From NCBI GenBank assembly GCA_963740085.1, contig CAVUCU010000007.1, positions 32,001 through 96,000 on the forward strand: a stretch of DNA of 64,000 bases. The letters are read 5' to 3'. The translations under genes were made by a program, and so were the position numbers. Under the pieces are notes generated by a model. It saw only the letters and a program-made list of their open reading frames with translations. It was not told where the DNA came from and did no database searches. The stretch is from Nitrospirota bacterium (lineage in GTDB: Bacteria > Nitrospirota > UBA9217). Below, in pieces: positions 4,406-61,331 of the stretch (position 1 is the first letter of the stretch; each line of letters starts with the position of its first letter).

Positions 4406-5221
4406 ATGTCCTTTCGTTTACGCTTCTCTATATTTCTCATTATTTCCGTCGTGCTTCATGCGCTGGTTATTGTCGGGATCATTTTGATAAAGCCGCAAAC
4501 ACCGGAGATGCCCCTGATCATGCCGGTCACGATCGCGAACCTGCCGCAGCAGGAGATCAGACAGCTTCCGCCGCTGAATCAGCCGACACCGGTACCTCAG
4601 GCACGTCCTGTTGTTCCTCCCTCACCCCCCGTTCCGGAACGCTTTGTTCCGGAAAAACCTCTGCCACCCGGCGCCGTGCCCATGCCAAAGAAATTCGGCA
4701 CAAGCGACGAGCTCAAACTCCCGAAGACCTTGCCGCGCACCGGTGTGCCTGAGGGAGCGGAGCAAGGCAAGGAAACGGGAAAGACGGGGGCCCAACAGCA
4801 TAAAGAGACCGGCCCTCTCCCCTTTTTGACCCAGAACGACATCGACGAACTCGCTCGCAAAGGCATGCCCCAGAAAAGACCGGGCGAGGATTCCGTCACC
4901 CTCGATACGGACGAATTCAAATTCATGTCCTACAACCGCTGGCTCAAGATCAAGGTCGAGAGCGTGCTCCAGTATCCCGAGCTTGCGGCAATATCCGGGT
5001 ACCAGGGAACGCTTTATATCCTGTTCGACATTATGAAGGACGGTTCCCTCGGCAGGCTGGAGATATTGAAGTCGTCCGGGTACAAGATCCTGGACGACGA
5101 GGCGCTCCGTTCGATCCGAGCCGCAGCGCCGTTCCAGCCGCTCCCTGATGAGTGGCACATGGAGCGATATTCCATTCGTGCGGCCGTCTTGTTCTATCTG
5201 GGTGCTGGATATATCCGATGA
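4406..5221 (+). CDS. TonB-family energy transducer
   Basis: N-terminal TM with SVVLH, Pro-rich linker, C-terminal YPELA...SSGYKILDDEAL. Confidence 0.88.
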   Translation: MSFRLRFSIFLIISVVLHALVIVGIILIKPQTPEMPLIMPVTIANLPQQEIRQLPPLNQPTPVPQARPVVPPSPPVPERFVPEKPLPPGAVPMPKKFGTSDELKLPKTLPRTGVPEGAEQGKETGKTGAQQHKETGPLPFLTQNDIDELARKGMPQKRPGEDSVTLDTDEFKFMSYNRWLKIKVESVLQYPELAAISGYQGTLYILFDIMKDGSLGRLEILKSSGYKILDDEALRSIRAAAPFQPLPDEWHMERYSIRAAVLFYLGAGYIR

Positions 5222-6414
5222 CGGACCTGCTGAAGATCGGCGCCGCCTTCGGGCTCATCGTGTTCCTTCTCCGCCTCCGCTGGAATCTCGGCCTGGTTAT
5301 GCTGCTTGGCTCGGTCTTCCTCGGGTCGCTCTCGCTCCTCGGGCCGGTGCAGCAGGCGCGGATCATCCTTGCCGCCGGCATCGATCCGGTGACGATAAAC
5401 CTCGTGACCGGTCTCGTTCTCATCATGGTGCTCGAGAACATCATCAGAAAACGGGGCGTCCTCAAACGCATGATGGAGGCCGTGGTGAACGTGGCCGGGG
5501 ACCGCCGCGTCGCCATGGCCGTGCTGCCCGGCGTGATCGGCCTCCTGCCCTCGGCAGGCGGAGCGGCCTTCTCGGCGCCCATGGTGCAGGAGGCGGCGGC
5601 CGATGCTGACATGCGACCGGAACGCAAGGCCTTCGTCAATTACTGGTTCCGGCACATCTGGGAATATATCTCGCCGCTCTATCCCGGCATCGTGCTGGCA
5701 GCCGCGGTGACGAAAACACCGATAAACAAGCTGCTTCTTTCCCAACTCCCGCTGCCGATCGCGGTCATCGCAGTCGGCGCGCTGCTCGGCTTCCGGGGAA
5801 CAGCGGTCGGGACCATTGAAGGGAAACGGGACAGGAACGAGCTCAAGGCGCTCTTCGTGTCCCTGCTCCCGATCACGGTCCCGATCGTCCTTGTTGTCGT
5901 ATTCAAGCAGCCACTGGCAATAGCCATGGCATCGATCGTGATCGCGATGCTCTTGTTCTACCGGTACGTGTTCAGCGAGCTTTGGACCACGCTTCGGGAA
6001 AGCGTTTCGCTCAATGTCATGCTCATGGTCTTCGGCATCATGGTGTTCAAGGGAATGCTCGATGCATCAGGCGCCATTGAAGTCCTGCCCTCCTTATTCA
6101 AACAGAGCGGCCTCCCGACAGGGGTTGTCCTGTTTGCGCTTCCGTTCATCGTGGGACTATTGACAGGCCTCACCGTCGGTTTCGTCGGCGCCACCTTCCC
6201 GATCATTACGGCCATGATGGGAGGCCATCCGGACCCCGCCACGGTCACCTTCGCCTTCGCGAGCGGCTTTGCCGGTGTGATGCTCTCCCCCACCCACCTC
6301 TGCCTGCTGCTGACGATCCGTTACTTCAAAGCCGACATGGCAGGCACCTACCGTTTAATGTACCTTCCGGTGCTCCTTGTCTTCCTCGTGGGACTGGTCA
6401 GGCTGTGGTTGTGA
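5218..6414 (+). CDS. DUF401-family multi-pass membrane protein
   Basis: GLLPSAGGA, NYWFRHIWEY and SPTHLCL motifs. Confidence 0.8.
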   Translation: MTDLLKIGAAFGLIVFLLRLRWNLGLVMLLGSVFLGSLSLLGPVQQARIILAAGIDPVTINLVTGLVLIMVLENIIRKRGVLKRMMEAVVNVAGDRRVAMAVLPGVIGLLPSAGGAAFSAPMVQEAAADADMRPERKAFVNYWFRHIWEYISPLYPGIVLAAAVTKTPINKLLLSQLPLPIAVIAVGALLGFRGTAVGTIEGKRDRNELKALFVSLLPITVPIVLVVVFKQPLAIAMASIVIAMLLFYRYVFSELWTTLRESVSLNVMLMVFGIMVFKGMLDASGAIEVLPSLFKQSGLPTGVVLFALPFIVGLLTGLTVGFVGATFPIITAMMGGHPDPATVTFAFASGFAGVMLSPTHLCLLLTIRYFKADMAGTYRLMYLPVLLVFLVGLVRLWL

Positions 6415-8718: not shown

Positions 8719-9912
8719 ATGATCACCAACGACATTCTTTCGGATTCTCATCAGTACATCATGAACACCTACAGCCGGCAGCCGCTCGTGCTCGTGAAGG
8801 GCCGGGGCACGAAGGTCTACGATTCCGACGGACGGGAGTACCTCGATTTCGTGACCGGCGTTGCCGTATGCAACCTCGGTCACTGCCACCCGCGGGTTGT
8901 GGTGGCGCTCCAGAAACAGGCACAGCGGCTGATGCACGTGTCGAACCATTTTCACAATGAGCCGCAGATCAATCTGGCAAAGCTGCTTGTTTCCAATTCT
9001 TTCGCGGACAAGGTGTTCTTCTGCAACTCCGGCACCGAGGCTGTCGAGGCCGCCATCAAGCTCGCGCGGCGATATTCCCGCGAGGTATTGAAACAGGACC
9101 GGTTCGAGATCATTACCATGAGGGGATCTTTCCATGGACGGACCTACGGTTCCCTGTCCGCCACGGCACAGGAAAAGTTTCACAAGGGGTTCGAGCCGAT
9201 CGTGCCGGGATTCCGGTACGTCCCATTCAACGATATCGGGGCCGTCGCAGCTGCGGTGAATGAACACACCTGCGCCGTGCTCGTGGAACCGGTCCTGGGC
9301 GAGGGCGGGGTGATCGTGCCGGCGCCAGGGTATCTGAAGGAACTGCGGGACCTCTGCGACAGGAACAATATGCTGCTCATGCTCGATGAGATCCAGACCG
9401 GCATGGGCCGGACCGGAAAGTTCTTCGCTTACGGCCATTCCGGAATTACCCCCGATGTCATCATGCTCGCCAAAGGGCTCGGCGGAGGCATGCCGATCGG
9501 CGCGCTCCTTGCCACGGACAAGGTTTCCCAGGCCTTCACGCCGGGAACCCACGGCTCGACCTTCGGCGGGAATCCGCTGGCCTGTGCCGCGGCAATCGCG
9601 TCGATCGAGGTCCTGATCGAAGACAACATCATCATCCCGAACGTGGTTCAGCTTGGCGCATACTTCCGGCAGGGTCTTGAGAAACTGAAACAAAAATATT
9701 CCTTTGTAAGGGACGTACGGGGGCAGGGTCTGCTCATCGGCATGGAACTGGACTTCCACGGCAAGGAGATCGTCTCCGCCTGCATCAGGGAAGGCATGCT
9801 GATCAATTGCACCATGGACACCGTACTGCGGTTCATGCCGCCGCTCATCGTCACCGAGGAAGAGATCGACCTCCTTATCGAGGCACTTGACCGGATCTTC
9901 GCAAAACGCTGA
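8719..9912 (+). CDS. argD: Acetylornithine aminotransferase
   Basis: NSGTEAVEAA, SFHGRT, DEIQTG, AKGLGGG and HGSTFGGNPLA. Confidence 0.95.
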   Translation: MITNDILSDSHQYIMNTYSRQPLVLVKGRGTKVYDSDGREYLDFVTGVAVCNLGHCHPRVVVALQKQAQRLMHVSNHFHNEPQINLAKLLVSNSFADKVFFCNSGTEAVEAAIKLARRYSREVLKQDRFEIITMRGSFHGRTYGSLSATAQEKFHKGFEPIVPGFRYVPFNDIGAVAAAVNEHTCAVLVEPVLGEGGVIVPAPGYLKELRDLCDRNNMLLMLDEIQTGMGRTGKFFAYGHSGITPDVIMLAKGLGGGMPIGALLATDKVSQAFTPGTHGSTFGGNPLACAAAIASIEVLIEDNIIIPNVVQLGAYFRQGLEKLKQKYSFVRDVRGQGLLIGMELDFHGKEIVSACIREGMLINCTMDTVLRFMPPLIVTEEEIDLLIEALDRIFAKR

Positions 9913-26536: not shown

Positions 26537-27816
<1,280 letters not shown>

Positions 27817-27924: not shown

Positions 27925-28749
27925 CTACGTCTCTCGTCCCTCTCGTTTCATTCCCTCATTCATGCTTCCCGTCCGGTATCCTGCGAGGTCCAGACAAACG
28001 TAGGTATAGCCGATCTCCTTGAGCGCCGCCGTGATGCGCTCCGCAACGCCGTCCGAAAGCAGCTTCGTAAACTCCGCGCGATCAACCTCGATCCGCGCCG
28101 TGTCCCCGTGGTGCCGCACGCGCACCTGGCGGAATCCGCGGGCGCGCAGCTGGTCCTCTGCTGTCTGAATTGACTTGAGTATCCTGGGCGTGATCCGTGT
28201 ACCATAGGGGATCCGGGAGGAAAGGCAGGCGAGCGAAGGTTTGTTCCAGACAGGAAGTTCAAGACCGCGGGCGAGCTCCCGGACCTCTGACTTCGAAAGT
28301 CCGGCCTCGACAAGAGGGCTGCGCACGCCATGTTCCTCCGCGGCCCTTCGGCCCGGACGATAGTCGATCAGGTCGTCGATGTTCGAACCTTCGAGGACAA
28401 AAGTGATCCCTTCTGTATCGGCAAGCTTCCTGAGCTTTTCAAACAACTCCTTCTTGCAGTGATAGCAGCGGTCCGGGGAGTTCCGGACAAAGGCTTCCGA
28501 GGCGAGTTCTTCCGTACGGAGGATCCGGTGGGTGACGCCCAGAGACCGGACAAAGTCCTTGGCCGACTGCAGTTCACCGGCGGGATAGGTCTCGGAAACA
28601 GCGGTAGCTGCAATGAGGCCCGCACCCATGACTTCGGAAGCGGCCCTGAGCAGAAGCGAGCTGTCCACCCCGCCGGAATAGGCGAGAACGGCCGGTTTCA
28701 TCTCGTGAAGCAGTGCCTTGAGGCGTTCCCATTTTTGTTCGGTCGGCAT
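27925..28749 (-). CDS. larE: LarE-family ATP-dependent sulfur transferase
   Basis: SGGVDS (PP-loop), CYHCK, DYRPG and CLSSRIPYG. Confidence 0.9.
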   Translation of the reverse strand: MPTEQKWERLKALLHEMKPAVLAYSGGVDSSLLLRAASEVMGAGLIAATAVSETYPAGELQSAKDFVRSLGVTHRILRTEELASEAFVRNSPDRCYHCKKELFEKLRKLADTEGITFVLEGSNIDDLIDYRPGRRAAEEHGVRSPLVEAGLSKSEVRELARGLELPVWNKPSLACLSSRIPYGTRITPRILKSIQTAEDQLRARGFRQVRVRHHGDTARIEVDRAEFTKLLSDGVAERITAALKEIGYTYVCLDLAGYRTGSMNEGMKREGRET

Positions 28750-29007: not shown

Positions 29008-29811
29008 TTATTTTTTCCCGGCCGGCAGGTTGAACCCCATCTTCGCAGAGACGGCTTTGCCTGCATCCTGCACCATGGAAATAAGAACGCCCTTTTCAAG
29101 GAGCTCTTCCGTGAGTCGGTACGACGGGGCAACGATGCCTACTGCGCCGATCACCTTCCGGGAAAAGTCCCTGACCGGCACAGCTATGCTCCGCACGTCC
29201 GGATCAGCCTCCTCGCGCTCAAGCGCATATCCTTTTTCAGCGATCTTTTTCAGTTCAGTGAGAAGGACATCGCGCGTCTTGATGCTCTTTTCGGTGAGCG
29301 GGGGCAAATTCACCTCCGGGTACAACCGCTCGATCTCAGCCGCCGGCAGAGCGGCAAGCTGCACTTTGCCCACCGCCGTGCAGTGGGCGGGAAGCATGGC
29401 GCCGATGCGCGAGGTCACGCGCACTGTCCTCGCCGACTCCGCGCTGTCCATATAGATCACCTTGTTCCCGCGCAGGACCGCCACGACAGAGGTCTCTCCC
29501 GATGCCGCCGTAAGGCCTTCGATGAGGGGCCGCGCATGGCGGCGGCACTCGCGCTGCTCGAAAAAGATCGCGCCGATCTGGACCGTCTTGGGGCCAAGGC
29601 GGTAGTTCTCGGACAACAGGTTCTGCTCGATGTAGCCGCGGTGCTCGAGCGTGGCAAGCAGCCGGAACACGTTGTTCTTGTGAAGCCCGAGCCGCTTCGA
29701 CAGTGCGGTCACGCCGAGTTCGTCCTCGGTCATGGTGAATGATTCCAGGATGTCGAGCGCGTGCGAGACCGACTGGATCGTATAATTTTCTTTTTCCCTC
29801 TTTATGACCAT
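29008..29811 (-). CDS. IclR-family transcriptional regulator
   Basis: QSVSHALDIL HTH region, HCTAVGK and GYA...EE. Confidence 0.95.
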   Translation of the reverse strand: MVIKREKENYTIQSVSHALDILESFTMTEDELGVTALSKRLGLHKNNVFRLLATLEHRGYIEQNLLSENYRLGPKTVQIGAIFFEQRECRRHARPLIEGLTAASGETSVVAVLRGNKVIYMDSAESARTVRVTSRIGAMLPAHCTAVGKVQLAALPAAEIERLYPEVNLPPLTEKSIKTRDVLLTELKKIAEKGYALEREEADPDVRSIAVPVRDFSRKVIGAVGIVAPSYRLTEELLEKGVLISMVQDAGKAVSAKMGFNLPAGKK

Positions 29812-29839: not shown

Positions 29840-30259
29840 TTACTTCAGGTGCCCCGTCTTCTTGCCTTTTTGCACGGGATAACCCTTCGAGAACCAATCC
29901 GGCATGCCTGCCTGATATATCATGAGAGAGGTGTATCCCAGCTCAGTGGCCGCACCTGCGGCCATTCTGCTGAGGCCTCACTCCAAGCCTCTGCAATAAA
30001 AAATGATCAGTGCTGTTTTATTCTTCGGCAAATATGCGGCCCTGGCCTTCATCTCCTCCGGCATGATATTGATAGCTCCCGGGATGTGCGCCAGCTGATA
30101 TTCTTCAGCCGTCCTTGTATCGACAAGCACCGCGTTCTTTTTTCCCATCAAATATGACCGCAGTTGCTCCGCATCAATGACCGTAAATTGCGCCATGACT
30201 GACGTGGAAAATAAAAGCAGAATACCGAACAAAAACAGGAAGGTCCTTGTTTTAATCAT
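29840..30259 (-). CDS. Exported rhodanese-domain selenoprotein (139 aa; UGA at 29978-29980 read as Sec)
   Basis: Signal peptide, DTR...EY..AHIPGA, FYCRGLE-U-GLSRMAA...GY...YQAGMPDW..KGYPV. The rhodanese C-terminus continues in frame after the TGA; SECIS hairpin present. Confidence 0.88.
29942..29974 (-). promoter_or_regulatory. Bacterial SECIS element
   Basis: CTCAG-cagaa-TGGCCGC-AGGT-GCGGCCA-CTGAG; apical loop starts 20 nt after the UGA and shares GCAGGU with the E. coli fdhF SECIS. Confidence 0.85.
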
Positions 30260-30315
30260 AGTAAGTCCTCTCTTTTAAAACAGGTGTTTAATCTTAAGTC
30301 GCTACGGCGAGTTTG

Positions 30316-30864
30316 TCAAGAGGTAAGTCCCCAGAGGCCGAAGGCGATAAAGATCAGCGCGGCGAACCATTTGATCTGTTTTTCAGGGATGTTCTTGTGC
30401 ACTACGATGCCGGCAATGATCCCGATCGCGTCCGCGATCAGCATCCCGGTCGTGGTGCCGATCCATACCGGGATGACCGTATTGAAGTCAGCGGCAAGCG
30501 CCACGGTTGCGAGCTGGGTCTTGTCCCCCATCTCGGCGATAAAGAACGCCACCGCAACGGTCCAGAAGGGGCTGAAGTTGAACCTTTTGTCCTCGTCCGT
30601 CAGCTTGTCACCGCGGAGCGTCCAGAGACCGAAGAGAATGAAGGACACCGAAGCCGCGATCTTGAGGTAATTGAGCGGAATGATATTGGTGAGATAATTT
30701 CCCACGAGGACGGCGAACAGGTGGTTTGCAGCCGTCGCGACGAATACACCCCACATCACTGTCTGCCACCTGAACCGCGAGGCAAAGGCCATGGCCAGGA
30801 GCTGGGTCTTGTCGCCCATCTCGGCCAGGGCAACGATCGCAAGCGACGTGAGAAACGCCGTCAT
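30316..30864 (-). CDS. TMEM165/GDT1 (UPF0016) Ca2+/Mn2+ transporter
   Basis: Two AEMGDKTQ motifs. Confidence 0.95.
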
Positions 30865-31919: not shown

Positions 31920-32235
31920 ATGAAACCGCTAAACTTCATAGGTTCAAGCTTGGACGACCTTCGGAACTTCCCGGATGAAGCTCGCAAAGCGGCAGGTTTT
32001 GAATTATATTCCGTACAATCCGGACTTGAGCCGAACGATTGGAAACCTATGCCCAGTAATAGGACGCGGGGTCAAGGAAATCCGTATTCACGTCCTGGGA
32101 GAATGGCGCATTATTTATGTGACAAAGTTCGAGGACGCGGTATATGTCCTCCATTCGTTTCAAAAGAAGAGCAAAAGAACGAATCAAAACGATATTGAAT
32201 CAGCTCGCAAGCGATTCAAGCAAATTGGAGGGTAG
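31920..32235 (+). CDS. RelE/HigB (Gp49-like) toxin with a +1 frameshift at ~32058
   Basis: MKPLNFIGSSLDDLRNFP...DWKPMPS, then IGRGVKEIRIH...VYVLHSFQKKS in the next frame. Confidence 0.88.
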
Positions 32236-32239
32236 TATT

Positions 32240-32524
32240 ATGAAAGAACCTATTATTAAATCATCCGGCAACGTATTTCTTGATCTCGGGTTTTCCCCTG
32301 AGGACGCCGCAATTCTTCAGATGCGTTCTGAGATCATGGCTGATCTTCGGAAGTTCATCAAGAACAAAAAGCTGACGCAAGCAAAAGCGGCTGAGATTCT
32401 TGGCGTTAGTCAGTCCCGCATCTCTGATCTTACAAGAGGCAAATGGGAGAAGTTCAGTTTGGAAATGCTTATCGCTCTTGCGACTAAGGCAGGCATGCGT
32501 ATCAGTCTCAAAAGAGCCGCATAG
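32240..32524 (+). CDS. XRE-HTH antitoxin (HigA-like)
   Basis: SSGNVFLDLGF and TQAKAAEILGVSQSRISDL..GK..KFSLE. Confidence 0.9.
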   Translation: MKEPIIKSSGNVFLDLGFSPEDAAILQMRSEIMADLRKFIKNKKLTQAKAAEILGVSQSRISDLTRGKWEKFSLEMLIALATKAGMRISLKRAA

Positions 32525-32529
32525 ACATG

Positions 32530-32587
32530 ACTTAACAAGTCGTTCGAGCCCCGCGCTTTACAGCGCGGGCTCAACTCGTCGATATGT
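32530..32587 (+). mobile_element. Degenerate attC-like site
   Basis: ACTTAAC-aagtc-GTTCGAG-cccc gcgctttacagcgc ggg-CTCAAC-tcgtc-GATATGT. Confidence 0.65.
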
Positions 32588-32675
32588 GCAAAATAAATAC
32601 TAAAATAATGAAGAAAATAGCCCTGGTGCTGATATGTCTTATCGTTCTAACAGCAGAGACGGGAGGAGTCTATCT

Positions 32676-33335
32676 ATGTCTAAATGCAGAAGCGGATTAA
32701 GGCTTTTTTTGCTGATCATAGTCGTGCTCACAGTCGGTGTGCCGATATTGACGCATCCGGCACATGCTGCGGATACGACCGAAGCTGCTATGCAGGATTA
32801 TGAGGCGACTATCCGTAAGGCCGAAAACTACTTTTCGGTCGGCAACTATTTCGAAGCGGTCCTCAGTTATGAGCGTGCCCGACGGGTTGCCTACAATAAC
32901 AAGCTTCGGACAGACACTGCTGCGCTCGAAAAGAAGTTGGCCCAGGCCCGTGATGCGCGCGACGGCAAGCTGCCGGTCGGCGGATCTCAATCTTCACCTG
33001 GATCAATACCGCAGAGAGCAGGAACTGGCCCGGCTGGCGTTTCTGTTTTTGCCGAGCTGACAACTTCGCGCGGCAGCGTTCCCTGGGTCCTGACAGCCCG
33101 CGACGTGCCGAAGGGTAACAAACTAAACTTTGGACCGTATGATCCCGCATCGCGCTGGGACATCTCTAATCCGTTTCTTCGGCATGATGCACGCTTCTTC
33201 AGTAATATCTGGAACGTGGCCTGCACTGCGGACGGGACCATCTATCTCGGCGCGGAAAGCGTCGTTCCGGCTGAAGAATTCCGGCGCATGCCGCGGGCAA
33301 ACCGCGACTGGTATAGTGGCGTAAGAGAACATTAA
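32676..33335 (+). CDS. Secreted hypothetical protein with a TPR-like helix, probably 3'-truncated
   Basis: GGAGGA RBS and signal peptide (..PAHA/A); ends abruptly where the sequence turns AT-rich. Confidence 0.55.
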   Translation: MSKCRSGLRLFLLIIVVLTVGVPILTHPAHAADTTEAAMQDYEATIRKAENYFSVGNYFEAVLSYERARRVAYNNKLRTDTAALEKKLAQARDARDGKLPVGGSQSSPGSIPQRAGTGPAGVSVFAELTTSRGSVPWVLTARDVPKGNKLNFGPYDPASRWDISNPFLRHDARFFSNIWNVACTADGTIYLGAESVVPAEEFRRMPRANRDWYSGVREH

Positions 33336-33405
33336 TGTTCGTTGTAAATTTTTTAGTAAAATGATAAGATAATACAATGTTATTCACGGTAAAAGGAGGC
33401 AATGT

Positions 33406-33627
33406 ATGCGCGTTAAAGACCTTCCCGAAATATCAAAATTAAGCACACCTGAAAAGATACTGCTGGTCGAGGATCTTTGGGACAATATCTCTGCAGATGA
33501 CGCTTCCATACCTGTGCCAGAAAGCCACAAAGCCGAACTCGATAAACGTTACAGACGATTTCAATCTGCGCCCGGCACCCTCCTGTCTCTTGATGATCTC
33601 AGAGCGAGAGTAGAAAAAAGGAAATGA
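33406..33627 (+). CDS. Putative addiction-module antitoxin (TIGR02574-like)
   Basis: LSTPEKILLVEDLWDNI...HKAELDKR. Confidence 0.88.
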   Translation: MRVKDLPEISKLSTPEKILLVEDLWDNISADDASIPVPESHKAELDKRYRRFQSAPGTLLSLDDLRARVEKRK

Positions 33628-33935
33628 CGTACACCCTTCGCTTTCTGCCAGAAGTCGAAGATGATGTTATCAGCGGCTATTCATGGTATGAATCGAAATC
33701 GCCGGGACTTGGAGAAGATTTCCTTCGGATGTTTTATGCCTGTGTCGGGGATATTCCCAGAAACCCCCTCATGTACCACAAAGTTCATCACGAATTCAGA
33801 CGTTGCCTGCTCCGGCGCTTCCCTTATGCAATCTATTTCATAATCAACGACAATCAAATTATCGTAACTGGCCTCTTCCATGGTGCCCGTGATCCCAGTA
33901 CTATCGAGTCGATGCTGAGGAACCGAAAAGCGTGA
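33624..33935 (+). CDS. RelE/ParE-family toxin
   Basis: WYE...GLGEDF, RRFPYAIYF and H.ARDP; ATGA overlap with the antitoxin. Confidence 0.9.
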   Translation: MTYTLRFLPEVEDDVISGYSWYESKSPGLGEDFLRMFYACVGDIPRNPLMYHKVHHEFRRCLLRRFPYAIYFIINDNQIIVTGLFHGARDPSTIESMLRNRKA

Positions 33936-36019: not shown

Positions 36020-37354
36020 ATGAACCCTATCTGTATAGTAGACGACGAATCTTCCATTTGTTCCACGGTAGCCAGCATCCTGAAGGACGAGGGATATCAG
36101 ACCATCGCATTTCCGGATGCGGAGAGCTTCTGGCAGGAACTCGATACCATGGAGCCCGCTCTCGTCCTGCTGGATATCTGGCTTCCCGGCATAGACGGAA
36201 TGCAACTCCTGAAACGTCTTCATGGCCGATTGCCCGCGCTCCCGGTCATCATGATGAGCGGACATGCCGGTATCGAGGCGGCGGTTGCCGCCATAAAGGC
36301 CGGTGCCTATGATTTTTTGGAAAAACCGCTGCACCTCGAGGTTTTACTCGACAAGGTGGAGTCTGCGCTTAAGCACAGCCCTTCCGTGAGCGGCGCAACC
36401 CTGCCGTCGGATACGAGGCTCGAGATCGTCAGCACCGACCTTTTGATGCCTCCCGGCATGGTGGACGTGGTGGATTCCCGCGAACCTCAGCGCACTCTCA
36501 GAAGGAATGTGGTCCTTAACGGCATAGGGCTCCTGAGCGGCCGGAACACCGGTATCATCCTGACCCCCCTCGGGATCAACGAAGGGATCATCTTTCAAAC
36601 TCTTGACGGTCAAACCATCCGTGGACATGTCACTTCCCTTGAGGATTTCTCCCGAAAAGTCCTGTCAAAGACCTTCGCCGCCAACTCCACCACACTGGAC
36701 AACGGGAGGCGGCGGGTGCGCACGGTTGAACATCTGATGGCGGTTCTTTCGATGTACGGAATAACCAACGTGCTCATAAAGGTCGACGAGGAGATCCCGA
36801 ACATAGACGGCTCCGCCATGGGTTTTTGCGGCCTCATAGAAGAGGCCGGGATAGAGGAACAGCCCGCCTTCACCAGGGTTGCGGTCATCCGTCAGAAGAT
36901 AGGGGTGGGAAACGAGGAGAAGCATGAAAAACACGTCTATGCAGAGCCCTTTGAGGGGTTCGAGATATCGATGCGGGTCGACTACCTTCCACCCATAGGC
37001 GAACAGGTCCTCACGTTCAATCCCGAAAAGGCGTCTTTTGCAAAGGAGATCGCCCCTGCCCGCTCCTTCAACACGTTTGAGAATATAGAAATGGCCCAGA
37101 AACTTGGAAAGGTCGGCGGCGGATATCTCAATTCGCACATCATCATGTACGATGGCAAGGTCATCAACACGGAGCTTCGTTATCCCGACGAATTCGTTCG
37201 CCACAAGATATTGGATCTGATCGGAGACCTCTACCTCCTCGGCTTCTCCATCAGAGGACGCTTTACCGCCAATATGACCTCGCACGGTTACAATCAGGCC
37301 ATGGTGGAACGCCTGTACCAGGCTATCCAGAGCAGCTCCGGGAAAAGACCGTAA
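36020..37354 (+). CDS. lpxC: Response-regulator receiver domain fused to LpxC deacetylase
   Basis: REC: IVDDE, LLDIWLPG, MSGH, LEKP. LpxC: QRTL...GIGLLSG, TVEHLMAVL, EIP.IDGSA, EIAPARSF, HKILDLIGDL, SHG.N. Confidence 0.9.
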   Translation: MNPICIVDDESSICSTVASILKDEGYQTIAFPDAESFWQELDTMEPALVLLDIWLPGIDGMQLLKRLHGRLPALPVIMMSGHAGIEAAVAAIKAGAYDFLEKPLHLEVLLDKVESALKHSPSVSGATLPSDTRLEIVSTDLLMPPGMVDVVDSREPQRTLRRNVVLNGIGLLSGRNTGIILTPLGINEGIIFQTLDGQTIRGHVTSLEDFSRKVLSKTFAANSTTLDNGRRRVRTVEHLMAVLSMYGITNVLIKVDEEIPNIDGSAMGFCGLIEEAGIEEQPAFTRVAVIRQKIGVGNEEKHEKHVYAEPFEGFEISMRVDYLPPIGEQVLTFNPEKASFAKEIAPARSFNTFENIEMAQKLGKVGGGYLNSHIIMYDGKVINTELRYPDEFVRHKILDLIGDLYLLGFSIRGRFTANMTSHGYNQAMVERLYQAIQSSSGKRP

Positions 37355-42396: not shown

Positions 42397-42421
42397 AAAA
42401 GGTTTTACACGATGCGCTACT

Positions 42422-42513
42422 CGCCTTCCCTACGCCGGTACTACCCGGATCAGGTTCTAAGGGTCGTCCCTGATATCAGGACTCTCAGCCCCGCCCTGCG
42501 GGGCTCCCCCAGC
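42422..42513 (-). promoter_or_regulatory. TPP riboswitch
   Basis: GGGGAG...GCTGAGAG...GACCCTTAGAACCTGATCCGGGTAGTACCGGCGTAGGGAAG upstream of thiS; TTGACA-17-TATTGT promoter just upstream. Confidence 0.95.
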
Positions 42514-42582
42514 TTTCTGTAGTGGTACAATACAGCACGTCAGAATCATTGTCAATAACATTTAGGCGCCGTTGCCGCGCTT

Positions 42583-46893: not shown

Positions 46894-46980
46894 ACGTAAT
46901 TTCGGCAAACCCGGTGAAAATCGGTGACGCAAAGCTATAGGGGCTTCGATTAATAACCATGCCAGCCAGCTGTAATTACG
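46894..46980 (+). promoter_or_regulatory. c-di-GMP-I (GEMM-I) riboswitch
   Basis: GGCAAACC-CGGT-GAAA-ATCG-GTGACGCAAAGCTATAGGG...ATGCCAGCCAGCTG matches the GEMM-I consensus. Confidence 0.85.
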
Positions 46981-59698: not shown

Positions 59699-61103
59699 TT
59701 ATGACCCCGTGGGACGCGGTATATGAATCGCTTCTTTATGCACATCTTCTGCCGCTTCCATCAAGGCCTCTGCCAACGTAGGATGCGCATGGATCATCTC
59801 CCCGAGCTGCTTTGCCGTGGCGCCCAACTGCATGGCCAGCGCACCCTCATGGATCAGGTCCGTTGCATGGGCGCCGCAGATGTGAACGCCGAGGACCTTG
59901 TCCGTTGCCTCATCGGCGATGATCTTTGCCATACCCGTGATCTCTCCCATGGCGTGCGCCTTGCCAAGCCCCCGGAATTGGAACCTGCCCACACGGTACT
60001 TGATGCCTCTCTCGACGGCCTGCCCTTCCCTGAGTCCGACGCTGCCGATCTCGGGCATGGTGAAGATGCCTGCCGGGACCACGCTATAATCCATGCGTGA
60101 ATCCCCGCCGAGCGCGTTAGCAACAGCCACGAGACCCTGCTGCGACGCGACATGAGCCAGCATCATGTTCCCTGTCACGTCGCCGATCGCGTAGACGCCG
60201 GGGACGCTGGTCTCCATCCTTTCATTTACCGTGATCTCACCGCGTTTGCCGATGGCCACGCCGACGCTCTCGAGCCCGAGGTTTTCCGAATTCATGCTCC
60301 GGCCGATGGAAACAAGAATCCGTTCGGTCATTACCTCTGTCCCGTTCGAGAGCTTCGCGACCATCATGCCGTCGGTGCCTTTCTCCACCTTTTCCACCTT
60401 TACCGTCGTCACCAGCTTGATCTTCGCTTTTTTAAGCTCCCGTTCGAGAATCCCGGACATTTCCTCATCCTCGGTCGATATTGCATGCGCCATCATCTCG
60501 ACCATGGTCACCTCGGCCCCAAAGGACCGATAGATGAAGGCAAATTCGGAACCGATCACGCCCGCACCAACGATCAGCAGGCTTTTGGGAATGCTGGTGA
60601 GTTGGATCGCTTCATCGCTCGTGATCACGCTCTCGCCGTCGAACGGGAAACCCGTCACCTTCGCAGGCCGCGAGCCTGTGGCGATAATGATCTTGTCGGA
60701 CTTCATGTCCGTCACGGTGCCGTCCTTATTGACAACCCGCACCATGTCGGGAGAGAGTAGTGAGCCCCGGCCCTCGATAAGAGTTACACCCCAGCTCTTG
60801 AACAGGCGCCCGGATGCCCTTGACCTGAGTGGAAACGACCTTGTCCTTGCGCTCGCGGATCTTTTCCAGGTTGTAGCCGACCTCGCCTGACACCTGGATG
60901 CCGAAATCAGCTGCGTTCCTCGTGCGCTCGAGCACCTCGGCTGAAGCGATAAGGGTCTTCGTCGGTATGCATCCCCGGTTCAGGCAGGTGCCGCCCACTT
61001 CAGCTCCTTCGACGACTGTCACCTGCGCGCCCTTCTGAGCTGCGCGGATCGCGGCCACATAACCGCCCGGTCCCGCGCCAATTATGGTCAGTTTTATTGT
61101 CAT
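59699..61103 (-). CDS. lpdA: Dihydrolipoyl dehydrogenase, split by a +1 frameshift at ~60806
   Basis: [10 protein letters not shown] and [11 protein letters not shown] in the first ORF; HAHPTLAE in the second. Removing one C gives KGIRALFKSWGV. Confidence 0.92.
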
Positions 61104-61331
61104 AAGATTCTCCCGGCTTGTTCGGTCATCCTCAAGCGCCCCCATAAGGGACATGGCTCTTCCAAGTGAAAATTACCAGGTTCATGCTGAAAACCTGCAC
61201 CCGCATGTTGAAAACCGGGGCGGAAAAGGACAAATGGAAAAGACACCTTCACTAAACGCCAATGATCGCTGCGGCTGTATGCCGTATCCCGCTTACGCGA
61301 TTTTATTACGTATGACCTATGCCACTGTCTT

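Follow-up and report, generated by a model that had tools for sequence, protein, structure and literature searches.

The question raised by this locus is whether a rhodanese gene on the minus strand of the window (the whole 64-kb stretch of Nitrospirota DNA that was analysed) ends at an in-frame TGA or is read through it as a selenoprotein and, if so, what chemistry the protein would carry out. As originally predicted, the open reading frame, which starts with ATG at 30259, stops at FYCRGLE*, and the frame stays open for 45 more sense codons before a terminal TAA (29842-29840 on the minus strand); coordinates and read-through translation agree on this. The peptide stretches quoted in that prediction occur in the read-through protein, whose active-site loop would be C89-R-G-L-E-U94-G-L-S. 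The features of the locus are collected in Table 1.

Table 1. Features of the rhodanese locus, in coordinates of the window.
Feature	Position	Strand	Basis or remark
Single-domain rhodanese selenoprotein CDS	29840..30259	-	139 aa, ~116 aa mature; Pfam match, L008 orthologue with TGA
Probable cleavable signal peptide, residues 1-23	30191..30259	-	Hydropathy and conserved A23/Q24 (inferred)
Cys89 codon, canonical rhodanese catalytic position	29993..29995	-	Alignment A1, model, PDB alignments
In-frame TGA, codon 94, read as Sec (inferred)	29978..29980	-	Homologue comparison, four other TGA loci
bSECIS-like hairpin	29937..29974	-	Upper stem 29964-29947, AGGT loop 29957-29954; lower stem not conserved
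Shine-Dalgarno-like GAGGA	30266..30270	-	Sequence
Sigma-70-like promoter TTGACA-17-TAAGAT	30291..30319	-	Overlaps GDT1 stop codon; directly upstream of rhodanese
Imperfect palindrome AAACA-N2-TGTTT, candidate IclR-family operator (tentative)	30276..30291	.	Just downstream of -10 box
IclR-family regulator	29008..29811	-	Starts 28 nt after rhodanese stop; Pfam HTH_IclR and IclR_C

With read-through, the match to the Pfam rhodanese family (PF00581), which begins at profile position 3, reaches position 101 of 102 instead of 70, and the score rises from 45 to 59.3 bits (cut-off 22.2), in keeping with the earlier claim that the fold is completed downstream of the TGA. Chance gives a frame of 45 open codons in 13% of random sequences with the local composition, and the open frame downstream of codon 94 is weak support by itself. 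An AlphaFold model was built from 33 sequences with Cys placed at residue 94 (pLDDT 87.5). In this model, the read-through protein is predicted to fold as one rhodanese domain, and residue 94 lies near the start of a helix spanning residues 92-106, so that a protein ending at the TGA would lack this helix, which completes the active site. The best structural matches were sulfurtransferases (identity 12-34% in the structural alignments), and comparison with GlpE gave a Z score of 13.9 and an rmsd of 2.5 over 107 aligned residues, tied with several other rhodaneses. Cys89, invariant in alignment A1, follows the strand formed by residues 84-88, and the prediction thus has a catalytic Cys opening the active-site loop, as in an active sulfurtransferase. 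In most of the solved rhodaneses aligned, this loop is shorter by two residues.

The N terminus of the protein has a basic start and a hydrophobic core, with a hydropathy peak of 3.1 over residues 7-17, and A23 and Q24 show conservation of 90% or more in an alignment of 56 sequences. Judged from sequence, this hydrophobic stretch and the Ala-Gln junction at 23/24 make export, which had been proposed at the outset, probable, with cleavage of the signal peptide after Ala23. Neither a lipobox Cys nor a twin-Arg motif is present in the window rhodanese sequence. A lipobox-like Cys was seen by eye at the N terminus of one related protein (locus L004, below).

Homologues were sought with the rhodanese sequence in which codon 94 was read as Cys, and 119 were recognised among 134 candidates. 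Among them, 83 stop precisely four residues past the loop-Cys position, a number that includes the window's own shortened record and one protein with Tyr for the loop Cys, and that is a count of protein records rather than of stop codons. A Cys stands at the position equivalent to Sec94 in 21 of the 119, with Trp and Gly in one each, and the other 13 are more distant. A further 19 homologues, single-domain and full-length, came from a profile search, every one with Cys at position 94 (19/19). The original prediction had placed the TGA at the second Cys of the subfamily and had named a search for homologues with Cys there as a check; that check has been run, and both sets of Cys forms bear the claim out. 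Close Cys-containing relatives are 60-69% identical to the window rhodanese, and Cys-containing multi-domain relatives are abundant in both searches.

At the DNA level, a genome scan returned at least 80 loci, mostly of unrelated rhodaneses, and 31 were translated. The subfamily loci among the matches listed were L001, L002 and L008, which are from Nitrospirota according to their record titles, and L004, from a delta proteobacterium; in all four, codon 94 is TGA, never TAA or TAG, and is followed by an open frame. The full-length orthologue in L008, which also carries the TGA, is 74% identical to the window rhodanese. Between these two, the 45 downstream codons show no indels; 29 are identical, 8 differ synonymously and 8 non-synonymously, while third-position differences dominate the downstream codons in the more distant locus pairs. 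The terminal TGA codons of rph, nif3 and usp in the window are TAG in L008, and TGA is therefore an ordinary stop in the source genome. Genetic codes 4 and 25, with TGA as a sense codon, were considered and ruled out, since ordinary genes here terminate with TGA.

The strong evidence for recoding is thus comparative, namely the pairing of Cys forms with truncated forms together with the conservation of the TGA, and it indicates that TGA94 is very probably recoded as Sec. As to whether Sec gave way to Cys or the reverse, a tree of 69 columns and 124 rows gave a hint that the Cys forms are nested among the shortened forms, but when it was thinned to 78 rows the data were compatible with one Sec clade (p-AU 0.57), so that either direction of change fits. 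The homologue that has Trp in place of Sec (P0002) groups within the shortened forms, and its Trp may be a TGA that the gene caller translated with a different code; the one with Gly (P0030) nests among the Cys forms.

A SECIS element had also been proposed, as a 7-bp stem with an AGGT loop placed 20 nt from the TGA on a lower stem of CTCAG/CTGAG. The 7-bp stem and AGGT loop are present in the window, and the loop begins 20 nt after the TGA. The lower stem did not hold up, the predicted pairing there being CUCAGC/GCUGGG instead, and the pairing common to all five TGA loci (the window and the four above) is limited to the inner 5 bp. The bSECIS rules given in a selenoprotein catalogue (PMC13188914), a loop of 3-9 nt with G in the first two loop positions, a spacing of 16-37 nt and an MFE of at most -7.5, were applied in an implementation of our own. 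All five loci pass at a spacing of exactly 20 nt, which agrees with the SelB-type geometry originally suggested, at low specificity: the same implementation passes 145 of the 2267 TGA triplets in the window, and 33 of the 2267 have a stem of at least 7 bp. Moreover, 544 of 2000 synonymous recodings of the window rhodanese pass (27%; 250 with a stem of at least 7 bp), as do 27-36% across the peptides of the five loci, because the codons of Ala-Ala-x-Ala-Ala tend to pair. The rough chance of three independent lineages all passing is 0.03. The folding z of the hairpin is about -2, covariation is limited to a single compensatory pair, no more than in shuffles (252/500), and no Rfam family matched at the hairpin at gathering thresholds. 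Taken together, the hairpin is consistent with Sec and adds modest weight, being weak by itself. The AAxAA peptide was considered as a Sec-specific feature and set aside: it occurs in 5/21 Cys forms of the first set, and this is weakened by 12/19 in the second (17/40 in all). When other hidden selenoproteins were sought in the window, 20 TGA read-through frames passed the hairpin rules, and only the rhodanese matched Pfam.

No selA, selB, selD or tRNA-Sec gene was found in the 64-kb window (53 ORFs scanned in one search and 7 in another), and no sel genes adjoin the rhodanese at any of the five TGA loci. SelB and SelC are reported to occur in Nitrospirae (PMC8124441). Directly upstream of the orthologue in L008 lies a second selenoprotein candidate (L008:8967-9785, plus strand), a rhodanese with a rubrerythrin/ferritin-like domain, in which a TGA (9150-9152) occupies the catalytic Cys position and is followed by a hairpin 18 nt downstream. 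It resembles form 2 of the catalogue discussed below and has no counterpart at the corresponding place in the window. This candidate second Sec rhodanese, together with SelB and SelC in Nitrospirae, would provide indirect support for Sec decoding.

What the protein does is a separate question. In the mechanism that we favour, SelB, guided by the hairpin, would insert Sec at UGA94, and the protein would be exported and then cleaved after Ala23. In the periplasm, Cys89 would take sulfane sulfur from polysulfide or thiosulfate to form a persulfide. Sec94, positioned at the start of the next helix, would attack this persulfide, so that sulfide is released or the sulfur is handed to an acceptor, and the resulting Cys-Sec selenylsulfide intermediate would be reset by a periplasmic reductant. 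A persulfide on the loop Cys is described as the general mechanism of the rhodanese family (PMC10925157). A parallel may be drawn with MccSep, a periplasmic enzyme reported to need both Cys and Sec to reduce polysulfide and to be common in Nitrospirota, whose authors leave room for further periplasmic sulfur-transfer components (PMC13510729). MccSep is used here as an analogy for Cys/Sec polysulfide chemistry and not as evidence of a partnership with the rhodanese. Given the recoding, the odds lie slightly on the side of the proposed Cys89/Sec94 sulfur transfer; for a selenoprotein and periplasmic sulfane-sulfur transfer chemistry taken together, the probability is roughly 0.55. The original prediction had named selenium transfer as a further function, and nothing specific in its favour was found.

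A selenoprotein whose Cys/Sec site serves more general redox or metal(loid) handling, either exchanging thiols and disulfides or reducing or binding oxyanions of As, Sb, Se or Te, is rather unlikely, perhaps one chance in a few. Phosphatases and an As/Sb reductase share the rhodanese fold (structural matches at ranks 34-40), and single-Cys sulfurtransferases do not typically have a second redox residue in the loop. However, C-x5-R is the phosphatase loop motif and the Arg six residues after Cys89 is absent, so that no such loop is present, and the best structural matches are sulfurtransferases, though the shared fold shows no function. MccSep, which bears on this reading as well, is reported to reduce selenite too (PMC13510729). 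It is more doubtful that the selenoprotein carries or scavenges periplasmic selenium, with a perselenide on Cys89. A selenium-substituted rhodanese was reportedly proposed as a selenium delivery form in an earlier study, and two Sec rhodaneses lie side by side in L008; against this, the sel genes adjoin none of the five loci, and many homologues use Cys instead.

The readings that deny Sec altogether fare worse. It is very improbable that translation truly stops at TGA94 (leaving a shortened protein or a pseudogene), that the triplet is an error of sequencing, or that code 4 or 25 applies and makes it a sense codon. The window does carry at least one indel error or frameshift (in purD), and the place of Sec is taken by Trp in one homologue and by Gly in another. 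Note, however, that the same break recurs in 83 proteins, that TGA is found in 5/5 DNA loci among the matches listed, that the frame downstream is conserved, and that a stop would cost the protein the helix completing its active site; in addition, ordinary genes of the genome end in TGA, and the Trp and Gly records nest among the shortened and the Cys forms, respectively. Decoding by a selC*-type tRNA-Cys(UCA) is rare compared with Sec decoding, and a UGA94 read as Cys in this way, to give a C-x4-C protein, is the least probable alternative. The selC* tRNA-Cys is reported from Nitrospirae, some with a UCA anticodon, but the UCA form with a dedicated CysRS was described for Desulfobacterales (PMC7609411).

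The kind of recoding is not new, and neither is the position of the Sec residue: the loop matches the first of the rhodanese selenoprotein forms already catalogued. The representative of that form, WP_010941598.1, is a protein from Geobacter sulfurreducens. The catalogue, of 2026, lists five rhodanese forms, with form 1 given as PF00581 and UxxS and WP_010941598.1 as its representative (PMC13188914). In the deep-Sep supplement, the latter has 423 residues and the loop C-G-G-V-T-U-V-L-S (PMC12013277). It has in common with the window rhodanese the PF00581 domain, one Sec, the C-x4-U-xx-S arrangement (by eye) and a hydrophobic N terminus. A further likeness to the form 1 entry is a Cys-containing protein of similar length and with the same loop, which aligns at 41% identity over 79 residues. 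The 423-residue representative, however, has an extra N-terminal domain and further rhodanese-like repeats, whereas the window protein has 139 residues and a single domain; this multi-domain architecture is not stated as defining in the catalogue's table (PMC13188914). The window rhodanese is filed here as a variant of form 1 and not as an orthologue. The C-x4-U rhodaneses among 14 matches in the deep-Sep supplement are all longer and multi-domain (PMC12013277), and the motif is entered in the catalogue as predicted only, with none of its members marked there as experimentally verified (PMC13188914).

No NCBIfam model reached its own cut-off with the window rhodanese. The best match was NF045694 (E 4e-19, profile positions 41-161 of 572), which describes TsoB, the rhodanese/DsbD fusion-like form 5 with UxxxxU and the same five-residue spacing. 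TsoB has two Sec residues and a fused membrane part, whereas the window protein has one Sec and no fusion, and its score of 68 bits falls below the cut-off of 805. Form 3, rhodanese_LYCAU (NF041203, CxU), is likewise a single-domain Sec rhodanese with a hydrophobic N terminus, but its Sec follows the Cys by two residues rather than five, and the score of 52 bits falls short of the cut-off of 115. Form 2 (UxxG), a rhodanese with a ferritin-like domain, also has Sec in the rhodanese loop, and a member adjoins the L008 orthologue; unlike in the window protein, its Sec replaces the catalytic Cys itself and there is no signal peptide. The fold is shared with GlpE, PspE, Wolinella Sud and BH2092 (3NHV), none of which has Sec, and BH2092 has a C-x4-C loop of equal spacing. 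GlpE, PspE and Sud use one loop Cys. Sud is periplasmic and, according to the title of its structure entry, a polysulfide-sulfur transferase.

What sets the window rhodanese apart from the catalogued type is a stand-alone single domain with a probable signal peptide. In the literature and in a motif search of the deep-Sep supplement, this single-domain subfamily was not found described, and Haft and Tolstoy 2025 and Zhang and Gladyshev 2005 may list members. The gene is almost certainly a real hidden selenoprotein gene, an often mis-annotated compact version of a catalogued type. The annotation error looks systematic, as about 80 database clusters of the subfamily appear cut at the Sec codon. 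The protein is the smallest natural scaffold for the C-x4-U rhodanese loop among those compared, and Cys relatives at 60-69% identity would serve as controls, making what Sec adds to a sulfurtransferase easy to test.

The rhodanese had been described as co-transcribed with rph and GDT1, which lie upstream, and with iclR, which lies downstream and is followed by larE. The link to iclR probably stands, with 28 nt between the genes and the same order in L008, where IclR is 86% identical; that to rph and GDT1 is weakened by the rhodanese gene's own sigma-70-like promoter and by the differing genes upstream in L008. The promoter is kept in L008 as TTGACA-17-TAATAT, although a different gene lies immediately upstream of the rhodanese there, and for this reason rhodanese-iclR is the likelier unit. 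The two genes probably share a transcript headed by the rhodanese. The rhodanese-iclR linkage is kept in 1/4 of the related TGA loci. Promoter-like sites number five in 3.1 kb against 1.6 expected, and rph and larE each have a sigma-70-like site of their own. Between GDT1 and the rhodanese no terminator was detected on the minus strand, and read-through transcription from rph-GDT1 is possible. Elsewhere, larC lies upstream and trpC downstream of the rhodanese in L001/L002, and L004 has other neighbours; the differing neighbours among L001/L002, L004 and L008 give no functional clue.

The palindrome next to the promoter differs by two mismatches from the group-2 IclR operator consensus TGRAACA-N1-2-TGTTYCA given in PMC8222616, a score tied by two other sites in the window, and is kept in L008 (9962-9977). 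A relaxed operator pattern, written after the site had been viewed, matched the window once and was rejected; 23/100 shuffles match too. Autoregulation by IclR through this putative operator is a tentative lead only. In a broader scheme, the stand-alone Cys/Sec rhodanese would be widespread but overlooked by gene callers and would shuttle sulfane sulfur through the periplasm of Nitrospirota that respire or disproportionate sulfur, feeding enzymes such as MccSep and switched by the co-transcribed IclR via the promoter operator; as a whole, this is a long shot.

Several other observations were made on the two loci. The window and L008 share gene order, with protein identities mostly of ~75-94% for the real genes, and the window thus probably derives from a Nitrospirota relative of L008. 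GDT1 (window 30316-30864, minus strand; L008:8241-8810, plus strand) is an outlier at 32% identity between flanking genes at 74-89%, which suggests replacement in place. The larE gene (window 27925-28749, minus strand) lies two genes downstream of the rhodanese in both the window and L008, and larC (L001:8509-9666, plus strand) lies upstream of it in L001, as does a similar ORF in L002. Both larE and larC are genes of the nickel-pincer cofactor; the link may be chance, and an exported protein would not meet their products. L008 also encodes a fusion of a VTT (DedA-like) and a rhodanese domain (5107-6051, plus strand) ~4 kb upstream of the orthologue, giving three rhodanese-domain genes within 6 kb.

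In the window itself, purD (26537-27813, minus strand) has a single-base deletion near 27097 relative to the intact L008 gene, probably a sequencing or assembly error, and a dihydrolipoyl dehydrogenase gene (59699-61154, minus strand) is split over two frames near 60730. Between rph and thiD, toxin-antitoxin-like pairs (an HTH antitoxin-like match and a TIGR02574 addiction-module component) occupy 31975-33935 on the plus strand, and L008 has other genes in this interval. A response-regulator receiver domain is fused to LpxC in one ORF (36020-37354, plus strand). Finally, a TPP riboswitch (42409-42520, minus strand) precedes thiamine genes, and a c-di-GMP-I riboswitch (46894-46977, plus strand) lies near a tRNA-Gly gene.
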